Positions 1-19,713 of a stretch of DNA of 22,579 nt are shown in pieces. Origin of the DNA: Myxococcota bacterium (GTDB lineage: Bacteria; Myxococcota_A; UBA796; GCA-2862545). The position numbers and the translations under genes were made by a program. How positions within the stretch are numbered: position 1 is the first letter of the stretch; each line of letters starts with the position of its first letter. Location of the stretch: positions 1 through 22,579 of the forward strand of contig JBCCQY010000155.1 in the NCBI GenBank assembly GCA_039208735.1, in the 5' to 3' direction. Below the pieces are notes generated by a model that saw only the letters and a list, made by a program, of their open reading frames with translations, was not told where the DNA came from and ran no database searches.

Positions 1-2725
1 CACGGGCCATCGCGTCCGCCACCAGGTTGACGATGACCTGTGACTTTCCGGTTCCCGGAGGCCCGTCCACGACGAGCAAACGTTGGGTTCGGGCCAGTTG
101 CAGCACGCGGCGCTGGGAAGGGTCCGACGCTAGCACGGGAATGATGGGCAACGTGGCCGCGGCTTCGACCTCTTCCTCGATGCACAGTTCCTCACGCACC
201 TCGACGGGAAGCAAAGGGCCTGCTGCGCCGAGCGTGTCAGCCAAGGGCACGCGTCCATCCGCCACCGAAGACAACAAGTCGTCGTAGTCGGCGATCATGT
301 CGGACGTGGACTGCGGGAAGAACCCGAGCACCGCGCACGGTTCCAACACGAGGCGGCCTGGGTCTTCGGCCTGGTCGCCTTCTTCAACGCTTTGGAACGA
401 CGTCAGCTCATCGGCGGGGGCCCGGGCCCGGAGCCCTTCGTCGGCCAGGGCCTGGCGCACCGCATCGGCACCATCGGCCGCGGCGCGGTCGAGCGTTTCG
501 GCGAGGTCCTCGTGAAACGACAGCCCCTTCTTCTGAAAGACGAGGCGGACCAACGCCAAGTTCACGATGGGCACTTCGGCCGTTCGGGGCACCAGCTGAA
601 AGCCGCGGGCCTCGCTGCGCTCGAGTTCGTAGGGATGGAGCACCAACGGCCCGCGCACGAAGTAGCCGTCCACCGTCCCGGTGAGGAAGGGGTAGCCTAC
701 GTACAGGTCACGGGAGCCGGTCTGTTCCGTTCGGGCGGTGGCCTCTCGCGAAAGTGCGATGAGCTGCTGGCTCACGACTGCCGCACCGGTGTGCACTCCG
801 GCTTCGCGGCCGTCGACGAGTCGAGCCGTCTCGTGGTTCGTCACGAGGGTCAGGGTGCGTTCGCCGTGGCCGACCGACAGCGATTCGAGGGCGTGCAGGT
901 CGAAGGTTCGGCCGTTGCGGACGGTGCGCAACCGGATCGAAGGAGACCGTCCATCACCCGAGACGAGCGATTCGCGAAGCCGTGCTACGCCCTTCGACAG
1001 TCGCATACGAGCGTCGCCGAGTTCTGGGTCGGGCATGCGAACCCGCTGCGTACGGGCCTTCTCGTACGCTTCTTGGCGGGCTTCGTCGTTGAGGGTGAAC
1101 GCCAGCGGCTGGTCGAGCGAGACCTCATCGAGGTCGATGTCGGTGACGAGGCCCACGCGGTCGAGCAACCGATGGACGGTGTCGAGGCTGTGCTGACTGC
1201 CCTCCCGGTCGCCGAGAAGCCGCAGCATCCGGCGCAACGACGCCTCCCCGCCTCCCCGGCGCTGAATGCCCCGGAGGAACACCTCAAGGGCCGTCTCGGC
1301 CTCCGCCATGCGCGCAGGCATGGGGATGGTCCGCGTGATCTTGGACAAGTCCCGAGGCTCATCGCCGAGGACCGCAAGCACCGGTGCCAGCAAGGTGCGG
1401 TAGAGTTCGCCACAGCCCAGCGCATCCCCGATCGCGCAGATCATCTCGACTTCACGGGCTTCGACCTCGGTATCGGCGGCGAGCACGTGCACGAGAACCT
1501 GGAACATGGCGCGTTGGGCGGCAATGCCGCCGGCACGCACGACGGAGCCCGTGTCGGCGAAGGACTCGAGGGCTTGGTCCCACACGAGGTAACGCTGCCA
1601 ATCGCCCACAAGCGTGCCAAACACGGTCTCGATGGCGTGGGACTCCTCTTCCGAAAGCTCGCCGTCGGCCAGGGCGACAAGGGCCGCTCCGGCGAGTGCA
1701 CACTCGTGGATCTCGGTCATGGGCTCGGGAACGAGCGCCGAGTCCACCAAACCAGCGACTCCCACCACCCCAATGGCCCGCGCAATCTGCTCGTCGACAT
1801 CCGACAATGGGCGGGTGCCCGGACCTTGTCCGGTCATCGCCTGGTAGGTCTCGGTCTCCGAGAACAGCCACAACGCCCAGGCTCGCAGACCGTGCTCGGC
1901 GTGCCCCGTGGTGCCCTCGACGAGCGCGTGGTCCATCAGCGCCTTGCACTGCTCGAGGTAGGCGGTGGTGTCCCAGGTAAGCGAACTCGTGGCGAGGCCC
2001 GTCGTGGCGGCCATCTCGAGTCGCAGCGCGGCGGGGAGGTCGCGACACGCGAGTAGCCCAAACCGATCTGCGGTGATCTCTCGGGCCAACGTCAGCGTTG
2101 AGGCGGCCCGCAAGGCGTGATCCGGCGCGTCGGGAAGGTCGAGGGCGGCCTTGGCGACGAGCCCCAACGTGGCATCGGGGAAGTTTGGTCCATGGGCCAG
2201 GTAGTGACCCACTTCATGACCCAATGCGGCGACGGTGCTCGGGGCGTCGAGCAACGTCAGGAGCCGGCCCCGAACCTCGAGCAGGGCGGGGCTTTCGATC
2301 AGGTGAATCGCGGGGTTCTCCGCCCCAGACGCTTGGTGGATTTCGAGGTCGACGTCGACCCCTAGGCGTTCCGCGGCGAGTCGCGCGGCTTTCCACACGT
2401 CCGCCGCCATGCCCTCTGTGAGGCGCACCGCGCTCGCTTGGAGGCGTCGGCGAATGCGAGCGGGATCGGTACGGCCACGCGCCTGGGCGGCCACGATGAG
2501 GTCCTGAAGCCACGGATTCGCCCGGAGCTGACTTGCCGCCGTTGCCTCGCCGCTGAACCGGATGCGGTCGGCTTCGATGGGATCCAGAACCACCGCTTCC
2601 CCGGGTTCGGAGTCGCTTGCGGCGGGCATCTGGACCGTCGTGTCTTCGCTGATGTCGGCGTCGACAGGCTTTTCCGATGCGTCGGAAGCGGCGTTCGGTT
2701 CGGAGCCGTCGTTGTGGGGCTTCAC
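1..2725 (-). CDS. Multidomain protein, 3'-truncated by the window edge (>908 aa): M48-like Zn-metallopeptidase + TerB-like + DUF4011-like + UPF1/DNA2-like SF1 helicase (AAA_11)
   Basis: Not in the ORF track because there is no stop codon in the window. Manual translation from GTG 2725 (GGGAGAG SD ~6 nt upstream) stays open to base 2. Motifs: ALGHEVGHY (HExxH, 2204-2218); REITADRFG (third Zn ligand, 2066-2080); ALADGELSEEE and AADTEVEAREVEMI (TerB-like pair, ~1670-1440); RTEQTGSRDLYVGYPFL...RGPLVLHP...VNLAL (DUF4011-like, ~740-550); SDPSQ...LVVDGPPGTGKSQVIVNLVADA (Q motif and Walker A, 41-64). Confidence 0.9.
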   Translation of the reverse strand, partial: MKPHNDGSEPNAASDASEKPVDADISEDTTVQMPAASDSEPGEAVVLDPIEADRIRFSGEATAASQLRANPWLQDLIVAAQARGRTDPARIRRRLQASAVRLTEGMAADVWKAARLAAERLGVDVDLEIHQASGAENPAIHLIESPALLEVRGRLLTLLDAPSTVAALGHEVGHYLAHGPNFPDATLGLVAKAALDLPDAPDHALRAASTLTLAREITADRFGLLACRDLPAALRLEMAATTGLATSSLTWDTTAYLEQCKALMDHALVEGTTGHAEHGLRAWALWLFSETETYQAMTGQGPGTRPLSDVDEQIARAIGVVGVAGLVDSALVPEPMTEIHECALAGAALVALADGELSEEESHAIETVFGTLVGDWQRYLVWDQALESFADTGSVVRAGGIAAQRAMFQVLVHVLAADTEVEAREVEMICAIGDALGCGELYRTLLAPVLAVLGDEPRDLSKITRTIPMPARMAEAETALEVFLRGIQRRGGGEASLRRMLRLLGDREGSQHSLDTVHRLLDRVGLVTDIDLDEVSLDQPLAFTLNDEARQEAYEKARTQRVRMPDPELGDARMRLSKGVARLRESLVSGDGRSPSIRLRTVRNGRTFDLHALESLSVGHGERTLTLVTNHETARLVDGREAGVHTGAAVVSQQLIALSREATARTEQTGSRDLYVGYPFLTGTVDGYFVRGPLVLHPYELERSEARGFQLVPRTAEVPIVNLALVRLVFQKKGLSFHEDLAETLDRAAADGADAVRQALADEGLRARAPADELTSFQSVEEGDQAEDPGRLVLEPCAVLGFFPQSTSDMIADYDDLLSSVADGRVPLADTLGAAGPLLPVEVREELCIEEEVEAAATLPIIPVLASDPSQRRVLQLARTQRLLVVDGPPGTGKSQVIVNLVADAMAR

Positions 2726-2776
2726 GTAGCGCTCTCCCGGTCTAGGCCGTGCCGCGGTCGTAACCTGTCGGGAGAC

Positions 2777-3472
2777 TCAGGCCTGCGAGACCGCCTTCAC
2801 AACGTCACGCTCGATGTCCGCCGCATGTTGGGGGAGCAACGCGAAGACGGTGACCGCGAACCGGTCGGCCGCCACCGACTTCACTTCGGGTGGTTTCGAA
2901 GGGGTCGACCAGTGATGCATGAGCGCCACGCGTTGTAAACGCTGCGGCGTCCAATCGGTGGACGGCACGTCAACCTCGAAGGTGTAGCGATGGGCGCCGT
3001 CGACCCGGGGCGTGCGGACGATGGTGCGCGCCGCGAGCCGACTGTAGGGGATGATGGCGTCGGAGCCGTCCTGGGTTTCGATGGTGAGTACACGAGGGCC
3101 CAACCGGCTCACCCGGCCTTGCCAGGGTTCGACGGTAATGGTGTCGCCCACCTTCACGTGCCCGCCGGCCCGAAGAAACGCGCCATGCCAGAGGTCCATC
3201 CAGGTGTAGCGGGCAAGCCAAAGGCCAAAGAACAGAATGAGGAGCACGGCCAGGGCCCGGTAGGCGGGCTCGCTGAAGAGCCCCTGCACGCCCAAGACCA
3301 AAAAGCCGAGGATGGAGATGAGCTGAAGGATGGGAAACCACTGCTCGAGCGACCGACGGCGCGCCTGGGTCATCGGCGCAAGACGCACCAGCGCCCAGGC
3401 TCCAAGCAACACCGTGATCAACGCAAGCGCCAGCCCAAACAGCTGCACCAATGTCCAAATCAGGGCATTCAT
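2777..3472 (-). CDS. Small MscS-family (mechanosensitive channel domain) membrane protein
   Basis: Three hydrophobic helices followed by the MscS beta-domain pattern VKVGDTITV...GRVSRLGPR...IETQDG...IIPYS. The ATG overlaps the stop of the upstream gene (ATGA, 3469-3472). Confidence 0.8.
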   Translation of the reverse strand: MNALIWTLVQLFGLALALITVLLGAWALVRLAPMTQARRRSLEQWFPILQLISILGFLVLGVQGLFSEPAYRALAVLLILFFGLWLARYTWMDLWHGAFLRAGGHVKVGDTITVEPWQGRVSRLGPRVLTIETQDGSDAIIPYSRLAARTIVRTPRVDGAHRYTFEVDVPSTDWTPQRLQRVALMHHWSTPSKPPEVKSVAADRFAVTVFALLPQHAADIERDVVKAVSQA

Positions 3473-6400
3473 GACACCAGCCCCCGACGAAGCATGCTTC
3501 GCAGCACCAAGTGTTGGGTGCGGGGTTGCAAACGCACGACGTTGCGCTTTTCGAGCTGGACGAGGCCCGCTCGACGTAGCGAGGCGAGTTGGCGCTGAAG
3601 TTCGGCCTTCGGCCGAGCCGAAATGCGCTCGAGCCGCTCAAACGTCATGCCCTTGTGGAGCATCATCTGGAGCAACAGGGCGACAAGCTCCATGTCGAGG
3701 GCGTCCATGGCGGCATCGTCGAGGTTGTGGGGGGAGACGATCGAGAGCTGTTCGGCATCGACATGCTCGATGTGGGCAAGCCAGCTTTGCAGGGCGGCCC
3801 CGATGTTCCCGTCGGTATGGTCGAAGTGACGGGTAAAGAGCTGGGCGACCGCGAAGTCGGACAATTCGTCGTCACGGCGACCATCGAGCGAGTAGCGCAA
3901 TCCCGTTGAGTTGTGGCGCAGCAACACGATCTCTTTCAGGGTCCGGGCATCGACCGGACCGCATTCGATGGTGTCGAGCGCGCCGGTGCCGAAGGGCGAG
4001 AACTGCTGGATGAAGCGCAAGGTCGGACTAGCCATTTCGATGATGAACAGCACCCGGTCGCCAAAGCGTTCCACGAGGTCCGCGATGCGGTTCAGCACAC
4101 CCATGCCATCGCGCGACCGTTCCCACCACAGCTGGGCGTCCGTCAACACGACGACACTGCGCTCCTCGAGCCCATCGATGAGGTCCTCGATGCTCCCGCG
4201 GCGCTTGAGGTCGACCTGCAAGGCCCGTCGAAACACCGCCGGGTCACACGAGCCGCCAGCCGGTGGTGTCACACGCACGATTGGTCGGCCCACGAGGAGC
4301 CGCTCGATGGCCACCTCGCAGAGCGCGGTTTTGCCCGCCCCCGGGTCGCCGGTGATGAAGATCGCGCCGTGAAATCCGCGCTGGTAGCGAACGATGGCCT
4401 GCTCAAGCCGGTCGATCTCATGCTCACGGTCGACCCAGAAGGCCGAGTGCAAGGCCGACTGGGTCGAGAACAGTTGGGTGTAGAAGCTTGGTAGGGCCTC
4501 AATGACGGCCGGATCGGGTGAGAACGCCTCGGCGAGCGCCAGCACCCCATCTGCGGCCGGCGGCTTCGTCGCGGCCTGGACGCGTCGGGCGAGCAAGACG
4601 GTGGCCGAGCGACGGTACGCGAGCGACACCAGGGCTTCACGCACCCACCGGGCAAATTCCTGGGGCCATGCCCCCATCGTCCCAAGCGTACTCGTGCGAC
4701 GTTCGCCCTTGGCGAGCGCCTCGACCGTGCCGAGCAGGGCAAACCCGTTGGTGAGGTCCAACACCTGCTCCAGGCGATCTTCGACTTGCTCGGCCATCGT
4801 TCGGTCAAACTGCCGGAGGCGGCCCAAATCGGCGTTCAGGCGTTCGATGCCGGCCTTGAGAACGGGTTCGAGGGCTTCTTCAAGGGATTCGCCGTCGGCG
4901 TGCTCGGTCTCGGTGAGGGTGAACCGAACGAGCCGCACCACGTCCTCGGCGTTGGTGGATGCGCGGATCATCTCCCGAGGCACATCGGCGAGCAGGTCGC
5001 GCAACGGGGCCACCAATTCGCCATCCACGAGGAACTGGAACCGACGGCGCAGGCCGATCTCGACGACCTCGATCTCGGAGAAGGGGTCGCTCTGGAGCGC
5101 CGACAAGGCATCGTCGGTGATGACATCCATCGTGGGGGGCACCGAGGCGGAGGCGGCCTGCAACTCCTCCCGAAGCTCCTCGATGGTGCGACGTTCCACC
5201 CCGGTTTCGTCCGCGAACTCGAACCCCGAAAGGGCGCTGTCGTTCGTCGGCGACTCCTTCTGAAAGTCCTCGAGCACCGCCACGAGCGAGCGGTTCCGAT
5301 GGGAGATGCGGGCGTCGATGGTGTCCCGCACGGCGTGCTGGGCTCGCCGCACCGATGCCACCACTCGGGTCTGCACCTCGGCGACCACGGGAACGAGCCG
5401 GGCGCGCATCAAGGTGAGGCGTTGATGCCACGTCCACACCGCAGGGAGTTCATCGAACGCCTCGAAGCCGGCAAACCCACCGCGGGGAAGCCGTCGCTCA
5501 AGGCGCGCATGCCGTCGGAGTTCGAGGGTGCCGAGGTCGCTCGCAAGCGTCTGTTGGATGGCGCGAGCGTCCGATAGCCAACGTTGAGCCAGGCGTTCGC
5601 TCGCAAGTTGGTTGGCTCGCGCGAAGTTGTCGATCTGGCGGGTCACCCGTTCGGTTTCGACCTCGACGAGTTCGGCGGTGATGGCGCGGTCCAACGCCCG
5701 GCCTGTCAACACCGCGAGGCTGTCGCGGAGGGTGTTGAAAAGCCGTCCCAACTCGGTCGAGAACTGCAGCGACCGACTGGCTGCGTCACGCAGGGCATGA
5801 TCGAGCCATTCGCGCGTGCGATGATCGACGTGAAACCGCATGAGCCGACGGGTTCGGAACGTGGTGCGGACCACCTTGCGCTGCAAGACCAGCGCAATGA
5901 GGCGGCGCCGAGCCTTGTAGCGGCGCCGATGAGGAGGATCGGCAGGATCCGCGGCGTAGTCCGACAACGGCCGCCGAGCCACGATGCGTCGGGGGACGGC
6001 GCGGCGGAGGGGTTCGATGCCCTCCACAAACAACTCGAGGGCACGTTCGAGCGTCGCCTGCCGCTGCGGAAGCTGGGTGGTGACGAAGCTGTCGAGCTGT
6101 TGGGCCAAGTCCTCGTACAGCGCACAAGGGCCGTCCTCGAACTGGGAGGTCCGGACTTCAGGCTGCTCGACGGCCTGTCCGAGCCGCGCGTAGAGATCGG
6201 CGATGGACTCCCGCACGCCTTCGAGCAGCGCCATCTGGGACTCGAAGACCGGACGCAGCGCGGCCTCGACGAAGCGCTGTACCAGCTGCTGGTGGGCCAC
6301 CGAAAAGCGCGCCGCGGGTTGGGCCAGCGCCGGCACGGAAGGCAGGATCAAGGCCGGAAGCCGGTTGGGACCGGGCACGGGCGTTGGCGACTTGGGCGAC

Positions 6401-8595
6401 CGCCGGGTTGCGTTCGAGGCGGCGGTGAATGCCGATGAACCTCGCACAAACAGCGCCACCCCGATCTGTCGCACCATCGTCTCGAGTTCGTCGACGCGAC
6501 GAGGGGTGATGTCGTTGTCGGAAAGCCCGATCACCGTGAGGTCGGCCTTTGCCGAGTACTGAACGACCCATTCGGCGTGCGGGCGTCGTTGCACAGAGTT
6601 GTCGATGACCTTGACCTGGGCGTCGATGCGGGAGTCGACCAGAGCCTGGGTGGTCGTGCGGTGGAGGGCGTCCGAGACGCCGGGTTCGTCGTGAATAGCG
6701 AGGAAGCGCAGCTTGGCGCGGCGCCACTCATCGGAGGACGAAATGAACCGGATGAGGGCAAGGTGGAGCGGCAAGAACCCCGTTTCGTAGCGGAACCAAA
6801 GGTCGATCTGTTCGTGTTTGCCAAAGCCGCGTTCCGCATCGAACGCCAGGGCAAGCAGATTCAAATCGAGTTCACGTAGGGTTCCGAGGAACGACGAAAA
6901 AGCGTCGGGACGACGGGCGTGATCATGCCAATCGATCATGACGGTATTGGGTTCGAGCCCGGAAAACCCATGGAATCGACACACCGCCGACATCGTGTCG
7001 TAGGGGTCGCCGTTGAGGTCCACCACGCGATGGAAGAACCCTTCATGGTCATGGTCTTCGTGCGTGTGAGGTACGCTTGGGGGCACGGTCTGGTTGCGAG
7101 CGAGAAGGAACTCGGTGGCCACGCCACGATGGCGGATGAGGGAGTTGCCGAATTCGAGCAGCGGTTCGCGGCTGTCGGCGTCGTGCTTCGTGAACAGCAA
7201 CAGGTTGGGACGCCAGTTGCGCTGGTGCTCGTGCTCCCGCGTGAGCTGCTGGAGGCCCACCCGTACCACGGACGACCAAACGCCAAGGAGCGCATCCCCG
7301 GTTTCAAGCTGCAGCTCGCGTCGCTTCAAGACGAAGAACAGCCCGGTCATAAGGGCGGCCGCAAGCAGCATTGCACCGAGGTCCAGCCAGATCATCAGCA
7401 CGGCACAAATGGCCGCGCCAAGGATGGGGATGGCCACGGGAATCTTGAACTCGGGACGGAAATCGGGGCTTGCGATCATCTCGAAGCCCGCGGACAGGTT
7501 GAGGAAGCCGTAGGTCGCGATGAAGAAGACACTCACGATTTGAGCGATCACATCGAGTTCACCGATCAGGATGCCCGCAAGCGCGATGACGAACGCGAGG
7601 ACCAGCGCATAGCGAGGCTCGTTGGTGCGACCATGGCCGATGGCGAAGAGGTGCGGCGTGATCTTGTCGAGCGACAAGGCCTGAAGAATGCGGGGTGCGC
7701 CCAAGATGCTGCCGAGCGCCGATGAAAGGGTGGCCCCCCAAATGCCGGCGCGAACGGCCTCGCTGTTGAAGGCAAACGCTTCGAAGGCCGAAGCCTCGTC
7801 GGCCAAAAGCTCGGGAGGGATTCGGTAGGCGCAGAAGAACGCGAGTCCCACATACACCGCCATGCCCACCGCAATCGCGGCGAGGGTGCCGATGGGGATG
7901 GACCGTCGTGGATCCTTGAGGTCGCCCGAAAGGTTCACGCCAGCTGTGAACCCGGTCACGGCAGGGAAGAAAATCCCGAAGAGTTCGGATGCTGCGCGGC
8001 CATCGGGCGCCGCAAAGAGCCGGGGCTCGAATGTTGGTGCAGCTTCTGCCGTTCCGCCGAACACAATGGAAAGAAGTGAGATTCCGATTGCGGCCAAGAT
8101 CAAGTATTGAACGCGGATCGCAAACGATGTGCTGATGAAGGTGATGATCGTCAACAAAACGAGAACGATGGTGCCGCAAAGTCGCAGTGCGTTCAGGTCG
8201 ACCCCGGCCGGGGCATCGCCCACCGCAGGCAGCATTCCAATGTCGAGCGTACGAAGAAAGCTTTCCGAAAACCCGATGATGTAGAGACTGATCGAGAACG
8301 ACAGCCCTACAAACAACGCCAAACCGAGGGTTCCGCCCATGGCGAGGCCCATCGATCGAGAGATGATGTAGTAAGCACCTCCGGCTTCGACTCGTTTGTC
8401 GGTGGCGATGGACGAAACCGAAAGGCCTGTCGTAATCGAGATGAGGTGCGCGGCGAGGATGATGCCAATCGCCACGATCAGTCCGCCATCATGCACGACC
8501 AACGGCAAGCGAAGGTACATGATGACGCCAAGGATCGTCAGGATCGAGGGAGTGAACACTCCGCCGAAGGTGCCGAACTTATTTCCGGAGGCCAG
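3469..8595 (-). CDS. Cation-chloride cotransporter (SLC12/APC superfamily) fused to a long helical region, a P-loop NTPase and a C-terminal winged helix (~1708 aa)
   Basis: CCC motifs: KFGTFGGVFTP, ILGVIMYLR, GGAYYIISRSMG, FFPAVTGFTAG, SGDLKDP, GAPRILQAL, RNWRPN, GFSGLEPNTV. Walker A GDPGAGKT at 4327-4350, degenerate Walker B VVVLTDAQ at ~4132-4155. HTH-like tail GMTFERL...LASLRRAGLV. Start moved from the track's GTG 8559 to CTG 8595 (see findings). Confidence 0.88.
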   Translation of the reverse strand: MASGNKFGTFGGVFTPSILTILGVIMYLRLPLVVHDGGLIVAIGIILAAHLISITTGLSVSSIATDKRVEAGGAYYIISRSMGLAMGGTLGLALFVGLSFSISLYIIGFSESFLRTLDIGMLPAVGDAPAGVDLNALRLCGTIVLVLLTIITFISTSFAIRVQYLILAAIGISLLSIVFGGTAEAAPTFEPRLFAAPDGRAASELFGIFFPAVTGFTAGVNLSGDLKDPRRSIPIGTLAAIAVGMAVYVGLAFFCAYRIPPELLADEASAFEAFAFNSEAVRAGIWGATLSSALGSILGAPRILQALSLDKITPHLFAIGHGRTNEPRYALVLAFVIALAGILIGELDVIAQIVSVFFIATYGFLNLSAGFEMIASPDFRPEFKIPVAIPILGAAICAVLMIWLDLGAMLLAAALMTGLFFVLKRRELQLETGDALLGVWSSVVRVGLQQLTREHEHQRNWRPNLLLFTKHDADSREPLLEFGNSLIRHRGVATEFLLARNQTVPPSVPHTHEDHDHEGFFHRVVDLNGDPYDTMSAVCRFHGFSGLEPNTVMIDWHDHARRPDAFSSFLGTLRELDLNLLALAFDAERGFGKHEQIDLWFRYETGFLPLHLALIRFISSSDEWRRAKLRFLAIHDEPGVSDALHRTTTQALVDSRIDAQVKVIDNSVQRRPHAEWVVQYSAKADLTVIGLSDNDITPRRVDELETMVRQIGVALFVRGSSAFTAASNATRRSPKSPTPVPGPNRLPALILPSVPALAQPAARFSVAHQQLVQRFVEAALRPVFESQMALLEGVRESIADLYARLGQAVEQPEVRTSQFEDGPCALYEDLAQQLDSFVTTQLPQRQATLERALELFVEGIEPLRRAVPRRIVARRPLSDYAADPADPPHRRRYKARRRLIALVLQRKVVRTTFRTRRLMRFHVDHRTREWLDHALRDAASRSLQFSTELGRLFNTLRDSLAVLTGRALDRAITAELVEVETERVTRQIDNFARANQLASERLAQRWLSDARAIQQTLASDLGTLELRRHARLERRLPRGGFAGFEAFDELPAVWTWHQRLTLMRARLVPVVAEVQTRVVASVRRAQHAVRDTIDARISHRNRSLVAVLEDFQKESPTNDSALSGFEFADETGVERRTIEELREELQAASASVPPTMDVITDDALSALQSDPFSEIEVVEIGLRRRFQFLVDGELVAPLRDLLADVPREMIRASTNAEDVVRLVRFTLTETEHADGESLEEALEPVLKAGIERLNADLGRLRQFDRTMAEQVEDRLEQVLDLTNGFALLGTVEALAKGERRTSTLGTMGAWPQEFARWVREALVSLAYRRSATVLLARRVQAATKPPAADGVLALAEAFSPDPAVIEALPSFYTQLFSTQSALHSAFWVDREHEIDRLEQAIVRYQRGFHGAIFITGDPGAGKTALCEVAIERLLVGRPIVRVTPPAGGSCDPAVFRRALQVDLKRRGSIEDLIDGLEERSVVVLTDAQLWWERSRDGMGVLNRIADLVERFGDRVLFIIEMASPTLRFIQQFSPFGTGALDTIECGPVDARTLKEIVLLRHNSTGLRYSLDGRRDDELSDFAVAQLFTRHFDHTDGNIGAALQSWLAHIEHVDAEQLSIVSPHNLDDAAMDALDMELVALLLQMMLHKGMTFERLERISARPKAELQRQLASLRRAGLVQLEKRNVVRLQPRTQHLVLRSMLRRGLVS

Positions 8596-10611: not shown

Positions 10612-12879
10612 TCAGTTTTCCGGGAACGCGGTCCAGCCCTCGAGCCACGTGTGTTTGGTGCCCGGCCGGGTTGCTCCGAGCCAGGTGGCTGCCGCATCCC
10701 AGAACTCTTCGTCGGGTAGCGGAGTCGCGCCTCGCGCCGCCGGGGAGTGGCCCGGTGGCGTGAAGTCGGGGGCCGAGATGTCCATCGTGCCGCCATCCAC
10801 GAGCTCCAGAGCCCCGGGCCACCCGCTCTCGATGAAGCCCCCGTCATCGTCTTCCTCCTTGGGGAAGGGGGTGCGCCCATCTTCGCCAAGGCCATACATC
10901 ACGCCAGGCCCGAGCGTGAGCCGACCCTGTCGAGCAAGCTCAGCGGTGCTCGCATCGCCAACGTCGGCCACCCCTCTCCGGAACCCACCAATGACCACGT
11001 TTTCGATGCGGCCGGCGGTCCCGCGACGCAACACGAGGGCCCGCTGAGACACCCGATCGTTGCGGGAACCGAGGAGGGTGAGGTGCGAAAGTCGAGGTTC
11101 GGAGCGGGGCGTGGCCTTGCTGTTCTCTTCGAGGTTGTCAGCTTCGATCGCGTTCTGCCCGCGTTCGTCGCCCAACTGCACGATGATGAACTGGGCCCGG
11201 CCCCTCCACCCCTGATCCCAATCGAGTCCATCGTCGCCGGGCTCTGTGATCACGACATGAGAGAGGTCGGCGGTGCCCCCGAACAGCTCCACTCCGTCGT
11301 CGAGGCCCTGGTGGACCTGGACGTGCCGAACGATGGTACGCCGCCCACAACCGCCGAGTGTCAGGCCATTCAGTTCGCTGTTCGCCCAGGCTTCGAACCC
11401 TGAGAACTCGATGCGGACGTATTCGAGGACCCCACAGTTGGATTCGGGGTCGTCGCCTCCATAGGCACCGCGTGGATCTTCGGGGTTGACTCCTTCGATT
11501 CGTCCATCCCCCACATTGACTGGCGCAGAACCGAGCAACACCACACCGCCCCAGTCGCCCGGAGCCCGTTGGCCGACTGGCTGGGCCGACGTGAACACCA
11601 CGGGGGCGTCGGGGCGACCCTCGGCACGAACCGTCGCGGTCTGGGTAACGACCAAGGCCGAACCTTCTTCCCCGCGTACCTCAGTTCCGGCTTGGATGGT
11701 CAGCGTGCCCTCTTCAACGAAGACGGGCTCGGTCAACACATAGATGTTTTCGGGGGTCCATTCATTGGTTCCCGTGAGCACGCCGTCGACCTCAACCAGC
11801 TCTGGCGAGCGGGTGGCCCATGCCGCGATGACCCCAGCGGCCAAGGCGACCAAGAAGAGCGACGCCGCCGCTCCCAACGCAAGTCCGAGGCCCCACCCCC
11901 GACCTTGTGCGGTGTCGGTCGGCCAGTCGACGCCAGAAATCGAGGAGACGGAACGAAGGCTGCGCGGGGGCGCCGAGCCAAGCGACGTTGTCGTGATGGG
12001 GTCGCCCGTCACGTGGCGGTGGATGATCTGCAGGTCTCTCGCCACCTCGAAAGCCGAGCTGTAGCGGTCGGCTCGGTTCTTTGCGAGGCATCGTTGGATA
12101 ATGTTGTCGAGACCCTCTGGGAACTGCCCCTCGGGCAGCGCGTCGCGAAGCTCCGAAGGGGGCTCCTGCAGATGCGTAAGCAAGATGCCCGCGGTGGTGG
12201 TGCGGGGGTCGAACGGCTTTTTGCCGGTGAGCATCAGGAACAAGGTGACGCCCAGCGCGTAGATGTCCACGCGGCCATCCAAGGCATCGCCTCGAATCTG
12301 CTCGGGTGCCATGTAGGCCGGGGTGCCGAGTAAAATCCCTTTTTCGGTTTGATCCGACTCGATCCGAAGGTCCTTGACGAGGCCCCAGTCGACCACCTTG
12401 ATCCACTCTCGTCCGTCGGCCGAATGGGTGAGCAAGAGGTTTTCGGGCTTGAGATCGCGATGGACCAAGCCGCGGGCGTGGGCCTCTTGCAGGCTGTCGC
12501 AAATCTGTAGTGCGAAATCCAACGCACGAGGGGTGATCAAAGGCCCTTGCTTGAGCAGCGCAGACAGAGGTTCGCCCTCGATGAATTCCATCACCAGATA
12601 CGATTGGCCGTCCCACCAGCCATAGTCGATGATGCGAACGGTGTGGGGCGACGTCAATGCTGCGAGCGAGGCCGCCTCTCGTCGGAAGCGGTCGGCCCAC
12701 TCTTGCGACGGTTCGATGGTACCCACATCCAGGAACTTTACCGCCACCTTTCGCCCGAGCGGCACCTGTTCGGCGGCGTAGACCCGACCCATCGCGCCCC
12801 GAGCGAGCAGCTCACGGACCACGAACCGGTCGCCGACCAGGCGTCCGATCAGCTCGTCGACATGTGGAGGATGGTCCAT
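10612..12879 (-). CDS. Transmembrane Hanks-type Ser/Thr protein kinase with a C-terminal extracytoplasmic beta-helix-like domain
   Basis: Kinase motifs LARGAMGRVY, VAVK, HRDLKPEN, DWG, GTPAYMAPEQ and DIYALG. One TM helix at ~11815-11890. The C-terminal ~390 aa contains PVVFTS, GDWGGVVLLG, YVRIEFSG, DDGVELFGG and DDGLDWDQGW. Confidence 0.92.
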   Translation of the reverse strand: MDHPPHVDELIGRLVGDRFVVRELLARGAMGRVYAAEQVPLGRKVAVKFLDVGTIEPSQEWADRFRREAASLAALTSPHTVRIIDYGWWDGQSYLVMEFIEGEPLSALLKQGPLITPRALDFALQICDSLQEAHARGLVHRDLKPENLLLTHSADGREWIKVVDWGLVKDLRIESDQTEKGILLGTPAYMAPEQIRGDALDGRVDIYALGVTLFLMLTGKKPFDPRTTTAGILLTHLQEPPSELRDALPEGQFPEGLDNIIQRCLAKNRADRYSSAFEVARDLQIIHRHVTGDPITTTSLGSAPPRSLRSVSSISGVDWPTDTAQGRGWGLGLALGAAASLFLVALAAGVIAAWATRSPELVEVDGVLTGTNEWTPENIYVLTEPVFVEEGTLTIQAGTEVRGEEGSALVVTQTATVRAEGRPDAPVVFTSAQPVGQRAPGDWGGVVLLGSAPVNVGDGRIEGVNPEDPRGAYGGDDPESNCGVLEYVRIEFSGFEAWANSELNGLTLGGCGRRTIVRHVQVHQGLDDGVELFGGTADLSHVVITEPGDDGLDWDQGWRGRAQFIIVQLGDERGQNAIEADNLEENSKATPRSEPRLSHLTLLGSRNDRVSQRALVLRRGTAGRIENVVIGGFRRGVADVGDASTAELARQGRLTLGPGVMYGLGEDGRTPFPKEEDDDGGFIESGWPGALELVDGGTMDISAPDFTPPGHSPAARGATPLPDEEFWDAAATWLGATRPGTKHTWLEGWTAFPEN

Positions 12880-17245: not shown

Positions 17246-19390
17246 CTACGGTACGATTTCGGGAACGTTGACCGTGACCGACTTGCCGCTCTCGAAGGCC
17301 TTGGTGGTGCTCCAGTCGAGGCCGACCGCAGGATTGACGACCCGAACGGTGTGTTGACCTGGCGGAATGCCTTGGCCCTGAAGCGGAGCTCGGGCCTCGA
17401 GCTTGACGTTGTCGATGTAGACGTCGGCGCCGCCTTCGGTCGGTACGGTCAAGATGAGCTTCGCAGGCACGACCGCATCTGCAAAAGGATCGACAAGGTC
17501 GTCGAGTCCTGCTTCGTACACCTCTTGCGAAGGCGCGGCCGCAGGCGCGGCTTCGTCTTCACCCTCCTCGGCCACCGCTTCGGAGGGGACGACGGCAATC
17601 CCGTCGGGGCCAAGCACTTCGCCTTGGGGGTCCAGCAGCTGGCGTTCCGTGGTTCCTAGATCGAGGCTGATCACGGTCGAACCTGGGGCCAGCTGGAGTT
17701 CGGTCGCGGCGTCTAGGTGCCCTTTGAGCCGCATTTCGACAGAATAGGCGCCACCGAGTTTGCCATTTGTCCACAACAGCGGCGTGACGCCGAGCCGAGT
17801 CCCATTCACAAAGATTGCGGCGCCCGTCGGCGTCGAGCGGAAGGTGACGGCGGGGACGCTTGGGTCGGTCGGGATGTCACCCGCAATGACCGGGGCATTT
17901 GCGTCGCGGTCGAGGCGGATCATCATGGGGGTAAGCAGGCCCTGTTCGACTGAAATTTCAGCCTCGTGAGGGCGGAAGCCTGGCGCCATGACCTTCAGCG
18001 CGTGCAACCCAGGTTCGAGCGAATCGATGATGAGGTGGCTTCCCTCGCCGCGTGGAATACCGTCGATCTCGACGCGACCGGGTGGGTCGACCACGACCTC
18101 GATGCCACTCGCCGCCGCCGCGGTAAGCCCTTCGCTGGTCGGGGCTTGGTCAGTCGCCCAACCCTGAAGCCATTGGGGCTGAATGGTCCGCACCGCAAAT
18201 GCGATCGATCCGATGACCACCAACAACACCGCCATGGCCACCGCGCCGGTCAGCGCCGAGCGAAGGCTTTGGTTGGAGGCGGTTCCCCGATCGGGCAACG
18301 TCGACGGAGTGCTGCCGTCCCAATTGGCTTCGAGCCGAGGCCCGGTGGCCACGGGCATGGTTTGCAAGGCTTTCGTGAGCCGTTGCTCTTCCGCTGCGCG
18401 TTCGGTGGGAAAGTCGGCTTCGAGCAGTTCGGCGAGGCGCTCTCGAGACGCCTCGACCGAGCCCGGGGCGATGAACGCGCGCAGTGCATCTGCCATGGCA
18501 TCCGCCGAGGGGTAGCGGTCATCGCGGTCACGCGACAACGCCTTGAGACAGATGGCCTCGAGTTCGGGGTCTACGCCTGGCCGATAATGGCCCATGGAAG
18601 GAATCTTTGATTCGCGAATCTTCTGGAGGGTCGCGATCTCACTGTCGGCCTTGAACAGGCGTCGGCAGGTGATCATCTCGAAGAGCAAGATGCCCGCGGC
18701 AAAGATGTCGGCCCGTTGGTCGATGTCTCGCCCTTCGGCTTGCTCGGGGCTCATGTAGTCGAACTTGCCCTTGAAAATGCCGCTTTTCGTGCGGTTGGCA
18801 TTGGACGAGGCCTTGGCGACGCCGAAGTCCGTGAGCTTGATCTCTCCGGTATAGGACAACAACACGTTCGCGGGCGAGACGTCGCGGTGCACGACGTCGT
18901 AGGGAACGCCTTGGTCGTCGGCCAAGGTGTGGGCGTAGTGAAGGCCCCGGCACACTTCGTGGGCGATGGCCGCGCACAGCGACAACTCGAGGAAGCGTTC
19001 GCGATGGGCAAGCCGCCGCAGCACGTTGCGCAGGTCTTTGCCTTCGACGTACTCCATCGCGATGTAGGAGTCGTGGTGGACCCGGCCGAAGTCAAACACC
19101 CTGACCACATTGGGATGCCGGAGCGCCGCGGTGATCTTGGCTTCGTCGGCAAACATATCGACGAAGTCTTCATTTTCGGCGATGTGGGGAAGAATGCGCT
19201 TGATGACGAGCACATCGTTTTCACTCAGCGGATTTGGCCCGCCTTGCACGGGCAAGGCCCGAAATACCTCGGCCATCCCGCCCGTCCCGATGCGGTCGAT
19301 CAGGTAGTACTTCCCGAACGTGAACGGGTGAAAGACACGTTGGGGTGGCCGTGAAATCGACGGCGCAACTGGTCGCTCGGGACCGGTCAA
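17246..19390 (-). CDS. Transmembrane Ser/Thr protein kinase with three extracytoplasmic PEGA-like domains
   Basis: Kinase motifs IGTGGMAEVF, LVIKRIL, HRDVSPAN, DFG, GKFDYMSPEQ and DIFAAG. One TM. PEGA-like repeats VVVDPPGRVEIDG, FRSTPTGAAIFVNGTRLGVTPL and GADVYIDN...PGQHTVRV. Probable TTG start at 19390 overlaps the upstream TGA and has a GAGG SD. Confidence 0.92.
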   Translation of the reverse strand: MTGPERPVAPSISRPPQRVFHPFTFGKYYLIDRIGTGGMAEVFRALPVQGGPNPLSENDVLVIKRILPHIAENEDFVDMFADEAKITAALRHPNVVRVFDFGRVHHDSYIAMEYVEGKDLRNVLRRLAHRERFLELSLCAAIAHEVCRGLHYAHTLADDQGVPYDVVHRDVSPANVLLSYTGEIKLTDFGVAKASSNANRTKSGIFKGKFDYMSPEQAEGRDIDQRADIFAAGILLFEMITCRRLFKADSEIATLQKIRESKIPSMGHYRPGVDPELEAICLKALSRDRDDRYPSADAMADALRAFIAPGSVEASRERLAELLEADFPTERAAEEQRLTKALQTMPVATGPRLEANWDGSTPSTLPDRGTASNQSLRSALTGAVAMAVLLVVIGSIAFAVRTIQPQWLQGWATDQAPTSEGLTAAAASGIEVVVDPPGRVEIDGIPRGEGSHLIIDSLEPGLHALKVMAPGFRPHEAEISVEQGLLTPMMIRLDRDANAPVIAGDIPTDPSVPAVTFRSTPTGAAIFVNGTRLGVTPLLWTNGKLGGAYSVEMRLKGHLDAATELQLAPGSTVISLDLGTTERQLLDPQGEVLGPDGIAVVPSEAVAEEGEDEAAPAAAPSQEVYEAGLDDLVDPFADAVVPAKLILTVPTEGGADVYIDNVKLEARAPLQGQGIPPGQHTVRVVNPAVGLDWSTTKAFESGKSVTVNVPEIVP

Positions 19391-19713
19391 GTATCGCCTC
19401 GAGCCGCCTCTCCCCACAACAGGTCGAGGTCATCGCAGTTGAGGTTGTTGTCGAGGGCCTGTGGCGACCCGAAATCTCGGCAGGACTGTGCGTCTTCCGT
19501 CGAGACATCCTGCTGAGCATCGAAGCAGGCGTTGACGTCCGCGTCGGGCACCGCAACGCCGCAGTCCCTGGAGAATTCAGCGAGTCGAACACACACGTTC
19601 TGACAGGGATTGCGACACGCTGAAGCCGTACCCAGGGCGAGAACGACGAGTGCGACCGCGTTTGAGGTTGCGACCCGGCGGATGACCGCCCGCGCTCTCG
19701 TTCCTACAACCAT
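19387..19713 (-). CDS. Small Cys-rich lipoprotein (108 aa)
   Basis: ATG 19713 has a GGGGAGAG SD. Basic n-region, hydrophobic h-region and lipobox-like TASA-C, followed by six more Cys in ~60 aa. Confidence 0.75.
   Translation of the reverse strand: MVVGTRARAVIRRVATSNAVALVVLALGTASACRNPCQNVCVRLAEFSRDCGVAVPDADVNACFDAQQDVSTEDAQSCRDFGSPQALDNNLNCDDLDLLWGEAARGDT

Follow-up and report, generated by a model that had tools for sequence, protein, structure and literature searches.

The window analysed here is a whole stretch of 22,579 nucleotides (nt), the beginning of contig C155 (JBCCQY010000155.1) in a 9.4-Mb draft genome of a Myxococcota bacterium. The gene at its start, on the minus strand, encodes the N-terminal part of a protein of about 1,966 amino acids (aa) in which an M48 zinc peptidase, one TerB domain, a winged helix, DUF4011, an Upf1-like helicase and a Vsr-like (MTES_1575) domain follow one another in this order. 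In the best reading of the sequence comparisons reported below, a defence helicase would have exchanged a nuclease effector for a protease. We tentatively propose, with slightly more doubt than belief, a single-gene anti-phage protein whose helicase would sense nucleic acid and whose predicted protease would deliver the output, the nuclease residues having been lost.

Catalytic sites kept and lost

The fusion belongs to a sizeable family. Among 8,000 candidates scored, at least 136 clusters of full-length homologues (at least 1,590 residues, E 0.001) were found, and the 120 clusters listed (1,794-2,296 aa) have an identical domain order. Carriers are mostly Myxococcota, joined by beta- and gamma-proteobacteria and Verrucomicrobia; cultured non-pathogens such as Fulvimonas soli (L072), Hydrocarboniphaga effusa (L033), Denitratisoma oestradiolicum (P0052) and Gilvimarinus agarilyticus (P0101) have intact copies. 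The distribution is patchy, the gene being present in 13 of 301 sampled genomes of the phylum. In a tree computed with FastTree from the helicase alone, the family forms one clade (55/55 tips, support 1.0), which rules out an assembly chimera. No neighbouring gene family recurs in more than four of 52 loci, and the gene is therefore taken as a single-gene unit. M48-TerB and M48-TerB-winged-helix proteins also exist free of the helicase (P0223, P0241, L141:6514-7770 and L144:6668-7939), which shows the N-terminal part to be a separate module.

Within this family, the peptidase and helicase sites are nearly invariant: a full peptidase domain is present in 138 of 142 aligned sequences, the zinc motif (HExxH plus the third ligand) is complete in 136 of these 138, and the helicase K, S, D, E, Q and R sites are kept in 136-137 of 137. 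The Vsr-like domain was compared across 257 distinct proteins with a helicase and a restriction endonuclease (REase) domain, comprising 135 peptidase fusions, 72 peptidase-less relatives, 45 family fragments and 5 unassigned sequences. The Asp of its 'RID' motif is found in 8 of the 135 fusions, which mostly have Pro instead, versus 71 of the 72 peptidase-less relatives. An acidic residue occupies the Glu site of 'ExDG' in none of the fusions versus 70 of the relatives, and 'RD' is acidic in none of the fusions versus all 72 relatives. To judge from these residues, the Vsr-like domain looks catalytically dead family-wide; since they are lost throughout, the suggestion in the original prediction that proteolysis might activate the nuclease has become unlikely.

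One of these positions has a mutational counterpart in the anti-phage protein Hhe, where, according to bioRxiv 2022.06.16.496414, E1731A abolishes a weak activity against T7. When numbering starts at an in-frame ATG that lies four codons further upstream, residue 1731 of Hhe is the Glu of GIECDG (ExDG), and the window's protein has Leu at this position. The Hhe used for mapping aligns with the PADLOC model over its full length, and with alleles from E. coli at 99%; assigning E1731 to the ExDG Glu assumes, as we infer, that the authors counted from the upstream ATG.

The pairing of a peptidase with a degenerate Vsr-like domain is also found as two genes. In seven of seven such loci (L140:5369-12032, L150:4461-11175, L155, L156:3076-9767 and L157-L159), a 400-aa M48 gene lies directly upstream of a DUF4011 helicase gene of about 1,830 aa and overlaps or abuts its start, and the degenerate Vsr-like domain of the helicase is accompanied by a BRCT or WGR tail. 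Peptidases of this type make up 69 clusters, with 14 records from Ralstonia megaplasmids; one two-gene locus lies on a Ralstonia megaplasmid, its helicase ending in WGR, and those of L140 and L150 are myxobacterial. All 70 aligned peptidases of the two-gene type retain HExxH, E, D and HPE-R, and the same Glu-to-Leu change is present in all three full-length helicases, which retain the first Asp. Fused and two-gene peptidases, together with free relatives, fall into one M48 subclade (support 99), and the peptidase profile of the fusion matches the two-gene M48 family at 99.85%. The helicase cores of the two builds do not group (the approximately unbiased test rejects one clade, p 8.7e-5), and the REase domains group weakly (0.84 on 90 columns). 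Either one peptidase/dead-nuclease pairing would have switched motors or the pairing would have arisen twice. No TerB-like tail is claimed for the two-gene peptidases, for which the profile probability was 2.8%. Among stand-alone peptidases, P0166, P0168, P0169, P0172, P0176, P0177, P0179 and P0182 bear one to three short acidic C-terminal 'LLxRFAxLE'-like repeats, which may resemble the C-terminal helix of PspA/Vipp1.

Several family members depart from the common plan. An extra N-terminal Ser/Thr kinase is found in L037:9092-16243 (2,383 aa), beside SNF2 and SMC-like genes, and an extra N-terminal DEDDh exonuclease in P0034 and P0035. The copies at L047:5082, L064:13935 and L053 carry a stop or a frameshift in their helicase part and are thereby split. 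P0239 (1,995 aa) is a paralogue of the full architecture that lacks both HExxH and Walker A and reads VEASQ for DEASQ; it has no Pfam match at E<=0.001 and, with all catalytic motifs lost, is a possible decoy or inhibitor.

The gene in the window and its domains

The minus-strand frame 2725..2 is open over 908 codons from a GTG start. It carries the motifs HEVGH (aa 170), EITAD (216) and GPPGTGKS (888) exactly where the original prediction had put them in a frame of at least 908 codons. That prediction had also called the frame hidden: the frame is real, but what hid it was merely the end of the contig, the program-made track of open reading frames (ORFs) having dropped it because no stop precedes that end. 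In a comparison with public sequences, 30 of the 36 listed differences inside the ORF are at third codon positions (17 further differences lie outside the list), and the frame is therefore under selection. One public contig spans 94-2900 with zero differences and zero gaps and possibly comes from the source sample; no RNA data set was listed among the holders of the sequence.

The second half of the gene lies on another contig of the same genome, C254:1-3183 (+), which encodes 1060 aa and supplies the insertion of the helicase, its motifs II-VI and the degenerate Vsr-like domain. The two contigs have an in-frame overlap of 7 nt at their ends; the C155 part matches residues 70-966 of the closest full-length homologue and the C254 part residues 965-2018 (at 84%), and the profiles of Hhe and of ProA, the Prometheus protein, run through the break (model positions 367 and 691). 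On the strength of homology and overlap, we join the halves into one gene. A stop or frameshift between protease and helicase was looked for and not found, and a split gene is ruled out by the single frame and the full-length homologues. The features of the window part are as follows.

2732..2738, minus strand: Shine-Dalgarno-like GGGAGAG, read from the sequence, 7 nt upstream of the GTG start
2..2725, minus strand: 5' part (908 codons) of the single gene of about 1,966 aa, continued by C254:1-3183 (+)
2594..2725, minus strand: acidic N-terminal extension, aa 1-44, predicted to be disordered (predicted local distance difference test, pLDDT, <50 for aa 1-39)
1769..2578, minus strand: soluble M48/BepA-like zinc peptidase domain, aa 50-319, from fold matches and Pfam M48 in homologues
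2204..2218, minus strand: HEVGH zinc-binding motif, aa 170-174 (H in 136/138, E in 137/138, H in 138/138)
2063..2080, minus strand: EITADR, with the third zinc ligand E216 (137/138), D220 and R221 (138/138 each)
1883..1903, minus strand: M48 'HP...R' motif in the form HAEHGLR (H275, R281), with Pro replaced by Ala and a short deletion before the motif
1361..1723, minus strand: single TerB domain, aa 335-455 (D354, E361, D418 and E425 invariant, 138/138 each)
1073..1327, minus strand: predicted winged helix-turn-helix, aa 467-551, from predicted secondary structure and a match to PurR 1o57 (Z 5.6 over 470-545)
236..1003, minus strand: DUF4011 region, aa 575-830 (Pfam core 638-726), with the family motif SGDGRSPS
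2..142, minus strand: start of the Upf1-like helicase of superfamily 1B, with the Q motif and the Walker A motif GPPGTGKS (aa 888-895, nt 41-64), from Pfam and motif positions

Further motifs lie at 353 (ADGELSEEE), 417 (ADTEVEARE), 800 (LGFF) and 810 (MIADYDDL). The highest hydropathy window (1.83) is centred on aa 314, in the linker after the peptidase domain.

Profile and structure comparisons bore out the expected domains to different degrees. DUF4011 (PF13195, 638-726) scores 31.6 bits against a cut-off of 22.2, and the helicase is identified by AAA_11 and AAA_12 matches, AAA_11 covering 868-905 of the window half. TerB (343-438) stays under its cut-off (20.8 versus 24.4 bits), and a Pfam scan of the window protein for Peptidase_M48 (PF01435) gave no match at E<=0.1, while 5 of 10 homologues scanned pass the M48 cut-off. 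In the AlphaFold model of the window half (mean pLDDT 88), aa 65-303 match M48 folds (3c37, Z 8.1, root-mean-square deviation (rmsd) 3.7, 148 aligned; BepA 6sar, Z 7.7; ZMPSTE24, Z 6.9) and aa 331-457 match TerB folds (2ou3, Z 9.6, rmsd 4.4, 122 aligned; 2h5n, Z 9.0), these Z values being middling and the assignments leaning on motifs. The two acidic motifs that had first been counted as two TerB-like elements fall within one TerB domain of the model. For the winged helix, Foldseek returned weak rows to MarR/ArsR/PadR with middling scores, and a Foldseek search with the N-terminal model gave no match at E<=0.001. The DUF4011 region, taken as part of the larger model, had no fold match, and a PDB sequence search yielded a weak ZNFX1 match only.

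The AAA_12 and MTES_1575 domains expected at the C-terminus were both found on the C254 half, MTES_1575 (PF18741) at 36.5 bits versus a cut-off of 38.2 that homologues pass. The model of this half (pLDDT 90) folds like Upf1 (2xzl, Z 15.4) and Ighmbp2 (Z 15.1), with a helical insertion of about 500 residues between helicase motifs I and II, and retains the Vsr-like fold (3r3p, Z 8.9; 3hrl, Z 8.2). Modelled together, M48-TerB and the Vsr-like domain yielded no usable complex (score 0.03).

Elsewhere in the window, 3469-8559 (-) encodes a protein of 1,696 aa that fuses an amino-acid permease domain (aa 4-452) to a long middle part, an AAA ATPase domain (1375-1472) and, at the C-terminus, a TrmB-like helix-turn-helix; it is followed by a small MscS-type gene, in an order identical in genomes G001 and G002 of the genus. 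Two Ser/Thr kinases with long C-terminal parts, one of them with PEGA repeats, are encoded at 10612-12879 (-) and 17246-19417 (-) and are typical of myxobacteria.

Genomic neighbourhood and competing explanations

A defence role for the M48-TerB-DUF4011 helicase is plausible from its genomic settings. At L072:3754-17654, a type I-G cas operon is split by the gene, with the Cas3-extension gene on one side and cas4/cas1 on the other; the gene stands immediately after brxC in L048 and L054, and near QatCD in L043. Clear defence or mobile Pfam families occur within two genes on either side in 13 of 49 loci versus 2 of 28 random stretches (p 0.034), and a broader list that adds SMC, SNF2, DUF5655 and DUF234 gives 17 of 49 versus 2 of 28 (p 0.0055); the list was compiled after viewing the case loci, the random stretches (40 requested and 30 obtained, of which 2 were too short) come from the window's order alone, L032 and L064 share a neighbourhood, and related loci are not independent. 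The embeddings in BREX and cas loci are more telling than these counts, and embedding alone is treated as reason enough for testing a candidate in section 10 of bioRxiv 2024.01.29.577857. Defence-island neighbourhoods, which the original prediction proposed to survey, are found in some loci, but not around the eight loci closest to the window's.

These limits of the enrichment, and several observations in this and the following three paragraphs, weigh against a defence protein with proteolytic output. About two thirds of the loci have no defence neighbour, and the eight closest (L023-L029 and L060) have none at all; most loci, these eight included, sit among housekeeping genes. The gene is present in five of five genomes of the window's genus and occupies the same locus among housekeeping genes in G000 (the window's genome), G001 and G002. 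A search of phage and plasmid collections gave no match to the M48-TerB part, and a DUF4011 gene is core in P. aeruginosa according to PMC10250203.

Vertical inheritance at a housekeeping locus would suit a protein of repair instead of defence, a helicase-coupled metalloprotease, analogous to SPRTN/Wss1, that would remove proteins trapped on DNA or RNA, in DNA-protein crosslinks or as stalled polymerases. The BRCT or WGR ends of the two-gene helicases, one of which precedes uvrA, agree with this, as do the precomputed PF10263 matches of some two-gene peptidases, one of them named SprT family. We consider such a role quite improbable for a gene found in so few genomes of the phylum and embedded in BREX and cas operons, and the tested relatives on this chassis named in the papers cited here are all anti-phage.

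The peptidase itself varies in the genus. Zinc ligands are lost in three of the five copies while the gene is retained: the motif reads QELGH in G002, QQLGH in G003 and RKLGH in G004, the first His being lost in all three and the catalytic Glu also in two. G000 and G001 keep all zinc ligands and share changes near the site (ENP for ENA, HAEH for HPEH and a short deletion). The protease of the window's own copy may be weakened, its genus being in the course of losing the motif. Across 45 genome loci, 37 match both peptidase patterns, 5 show clear motif loss and 3 match one pattern only. As far as residues tell, the protease motif is eroding in the window's genus while the helicase is kept, which makes it less likely that the output is proteolysis in every case. 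The helicase could then be the effector of a defence protein, stripping or unwinding phage transcription or replication intermediates, with M48-TerB-winged helix as a sensing or auto-inhibitory cap whose catalysis would be dispensable or serve self-processing only. Invariant helicase motifs beside a zinc motif lost in three genus members and several other loci, in each case with the long frame kept, fit this alternative, as does the occurrence of M48-TerB(-winged helix) as a free module; the additional exonuclease of P0034 and kinase of L037 suggest a modular sensor slot. We nevertheless rate it unlikely, though ahead of the repair role, against near-complete conservation of the peptidase residues in the fusions (136/138) and complete conservation in the two-gene peptidases (70/70). 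All domains of Prometheus (van den Berg 2024) are moreover reported as essential, second-hand, in PMC13700489.

The fusions, lastly, keep an E-x-H-x-H-x-P motif in the Vsr-like domain, and the His at position 1987 of P0002 is found in 129 of 141 sequences, with acidic residues close to it conserved. A rebuilt Vsr-like active site is possible on this basis, and the protein would then be, as in the original prediction, an ordinary Hhe-like nuclease-helicase with an extra protease layer, its nuclease site reformed from the conserved D/E-E/D-G and E-x-H-x-H residues. The Vsr-like fold is kept with high confidence, as this would require; the canonical acidic sites are gone in 135 of 135 fusions for two positions and in 127 of 135 for the third, the first Asp being mostly Pro, and we regard a surviving nuclease as the least probable of the explanations considered.

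Known relatives and implications

The chassis had been described as Hhe-like, and the order of domains is indeed that of Hhe, but Prometheus/ProA and PDC-S37 score higher. Hhe (NF042953, PADLOC PDLC02194) shares the DUF4011-helicase-Vsr-like order in a single gene, but it begins at DUF4011, has no HExxH and requires the Glu that is Leu here; three full-length homologues score 324-368 bits against its cut-off of 2000. ProA (NF058533) is the best NCBIfam match of the full-length homologues (525-548 bits, versus a cut-off of 1500 and 1769-2372 for true members) and has in common with them a single gene, DUF4011, an Upf1/DNA2-like helicase with a long insertion and an MTES_1575 domain. Its N-terminal slot is filled by a Cys...His transglutaminase-like segment in place of M48-TerB-winged helix, and it has a C-terminal DUF3320, whereas the C254 half stops directly behind the Vsr-like domain and has no PF11784 match. 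The Vsr-like residues lost in the fusion family are intact in the ProA member L139 (RID, ECDG, YH, RD). In ProA-type proteins (L139:1426-8088, L138:2203-7356, L152 and L153), a C-x-D...GH transglutaminase-like segment without a Pfam call precedes DUF4011 and is a putative second type of protease on this chassis.

PDC-S37 (PDLC05009) is the best PADLOC match, at 485-548 bits on a profile shown without a cut-off, the best stretches lying in the helicase and the REase part; on this candidate profile, the scores of Hhe and ProA themselves are 1265-1274 bits. According to section 10 of bioRxiv 2024.01.29.577857, PDC candidates are defined by embedding in BREX, DISARM or restriction-modification loci, the same kind of embedding as in L048 and L054. 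By analogy, the fusion would work like Hhe and Prometheus while being a member of neither.

The individual domains have relatives of their own. The peptidase shares fold and catalytic motifs with M48 enzymes (BepA, Q74D82, Ste24/HtpX), here without a signal or membrane-spanning part and fused to a helicase, and the TerB domain shares fold and acidic motifs with TerB proteins, here inside a helicase fusion. Shango, as described in PMC10250203, consists of three genes (a TerB-like protein, an ATPase and a DEAD/DEAH helicase), in contrast to the single gene and superfamily 1 (SF1) helicase found here. A protease on such a helicase has a precedent, in that PMC3710099 describes giant HEPN-transglutaminase-SF1 helicase-Vsr-wHTH (winged helix-turn-helix) proteins and predicts their peptidase to be a further line of defence by protein cleavage; in that text the peptidase is of the transglutaminase-like thiol type, without TerB, and the Vsr domain is treated as a DNase. 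No description of the architecture in its M48-TerB form turned up in the literature searched, although Gao 2020, Anantharaman 2012, van den Berg 2024, supplements and the PDC tables may list it.

In the preferred reading, of a helicase sensor with a proteolytic output, the Upf1-like motor would load on abnormal nucleic acid (an R-loop or single-stranded intermediates of phage replication or transcription), which both the winged helix and the dead-looking Vsr-like fold would help to grip. TerB, with its invariant acidic residues, would be a metal- or ligand-binding switch next to the protease, and activation would free the M48 site for cleavage of a protein that sits on the nucleic acid, of a host protein on which the phage depends, or of the enzyme itself.

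More broadly, though we think it rather doubtful, the fused and two-gene builds could represent an immune class in which an Upf1-like motor tracks invader nucleic acid and a zinc protease destroys the proteins met or a host target, the ancestral nuclease being off. Such a class would span separate helicase lineages, with WGR or BRCT tails in the two-gene build, and would parallel the transglutaminase-like slot of Prometheus, which would make proteolysis a hidden general output of DUF4011 helicases. In two helicase lineages, a widespread branch has dropped the Vsr-type residue needed by Hhe and retained a zinc protease, and this branch offers a clean test of whether helicase sensing is wired to proteolysis, with natural protease-dead alleles available as controls. 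TerB, long suspected of anti-phage roles, would thereby gain a defined position beside an enzyme.

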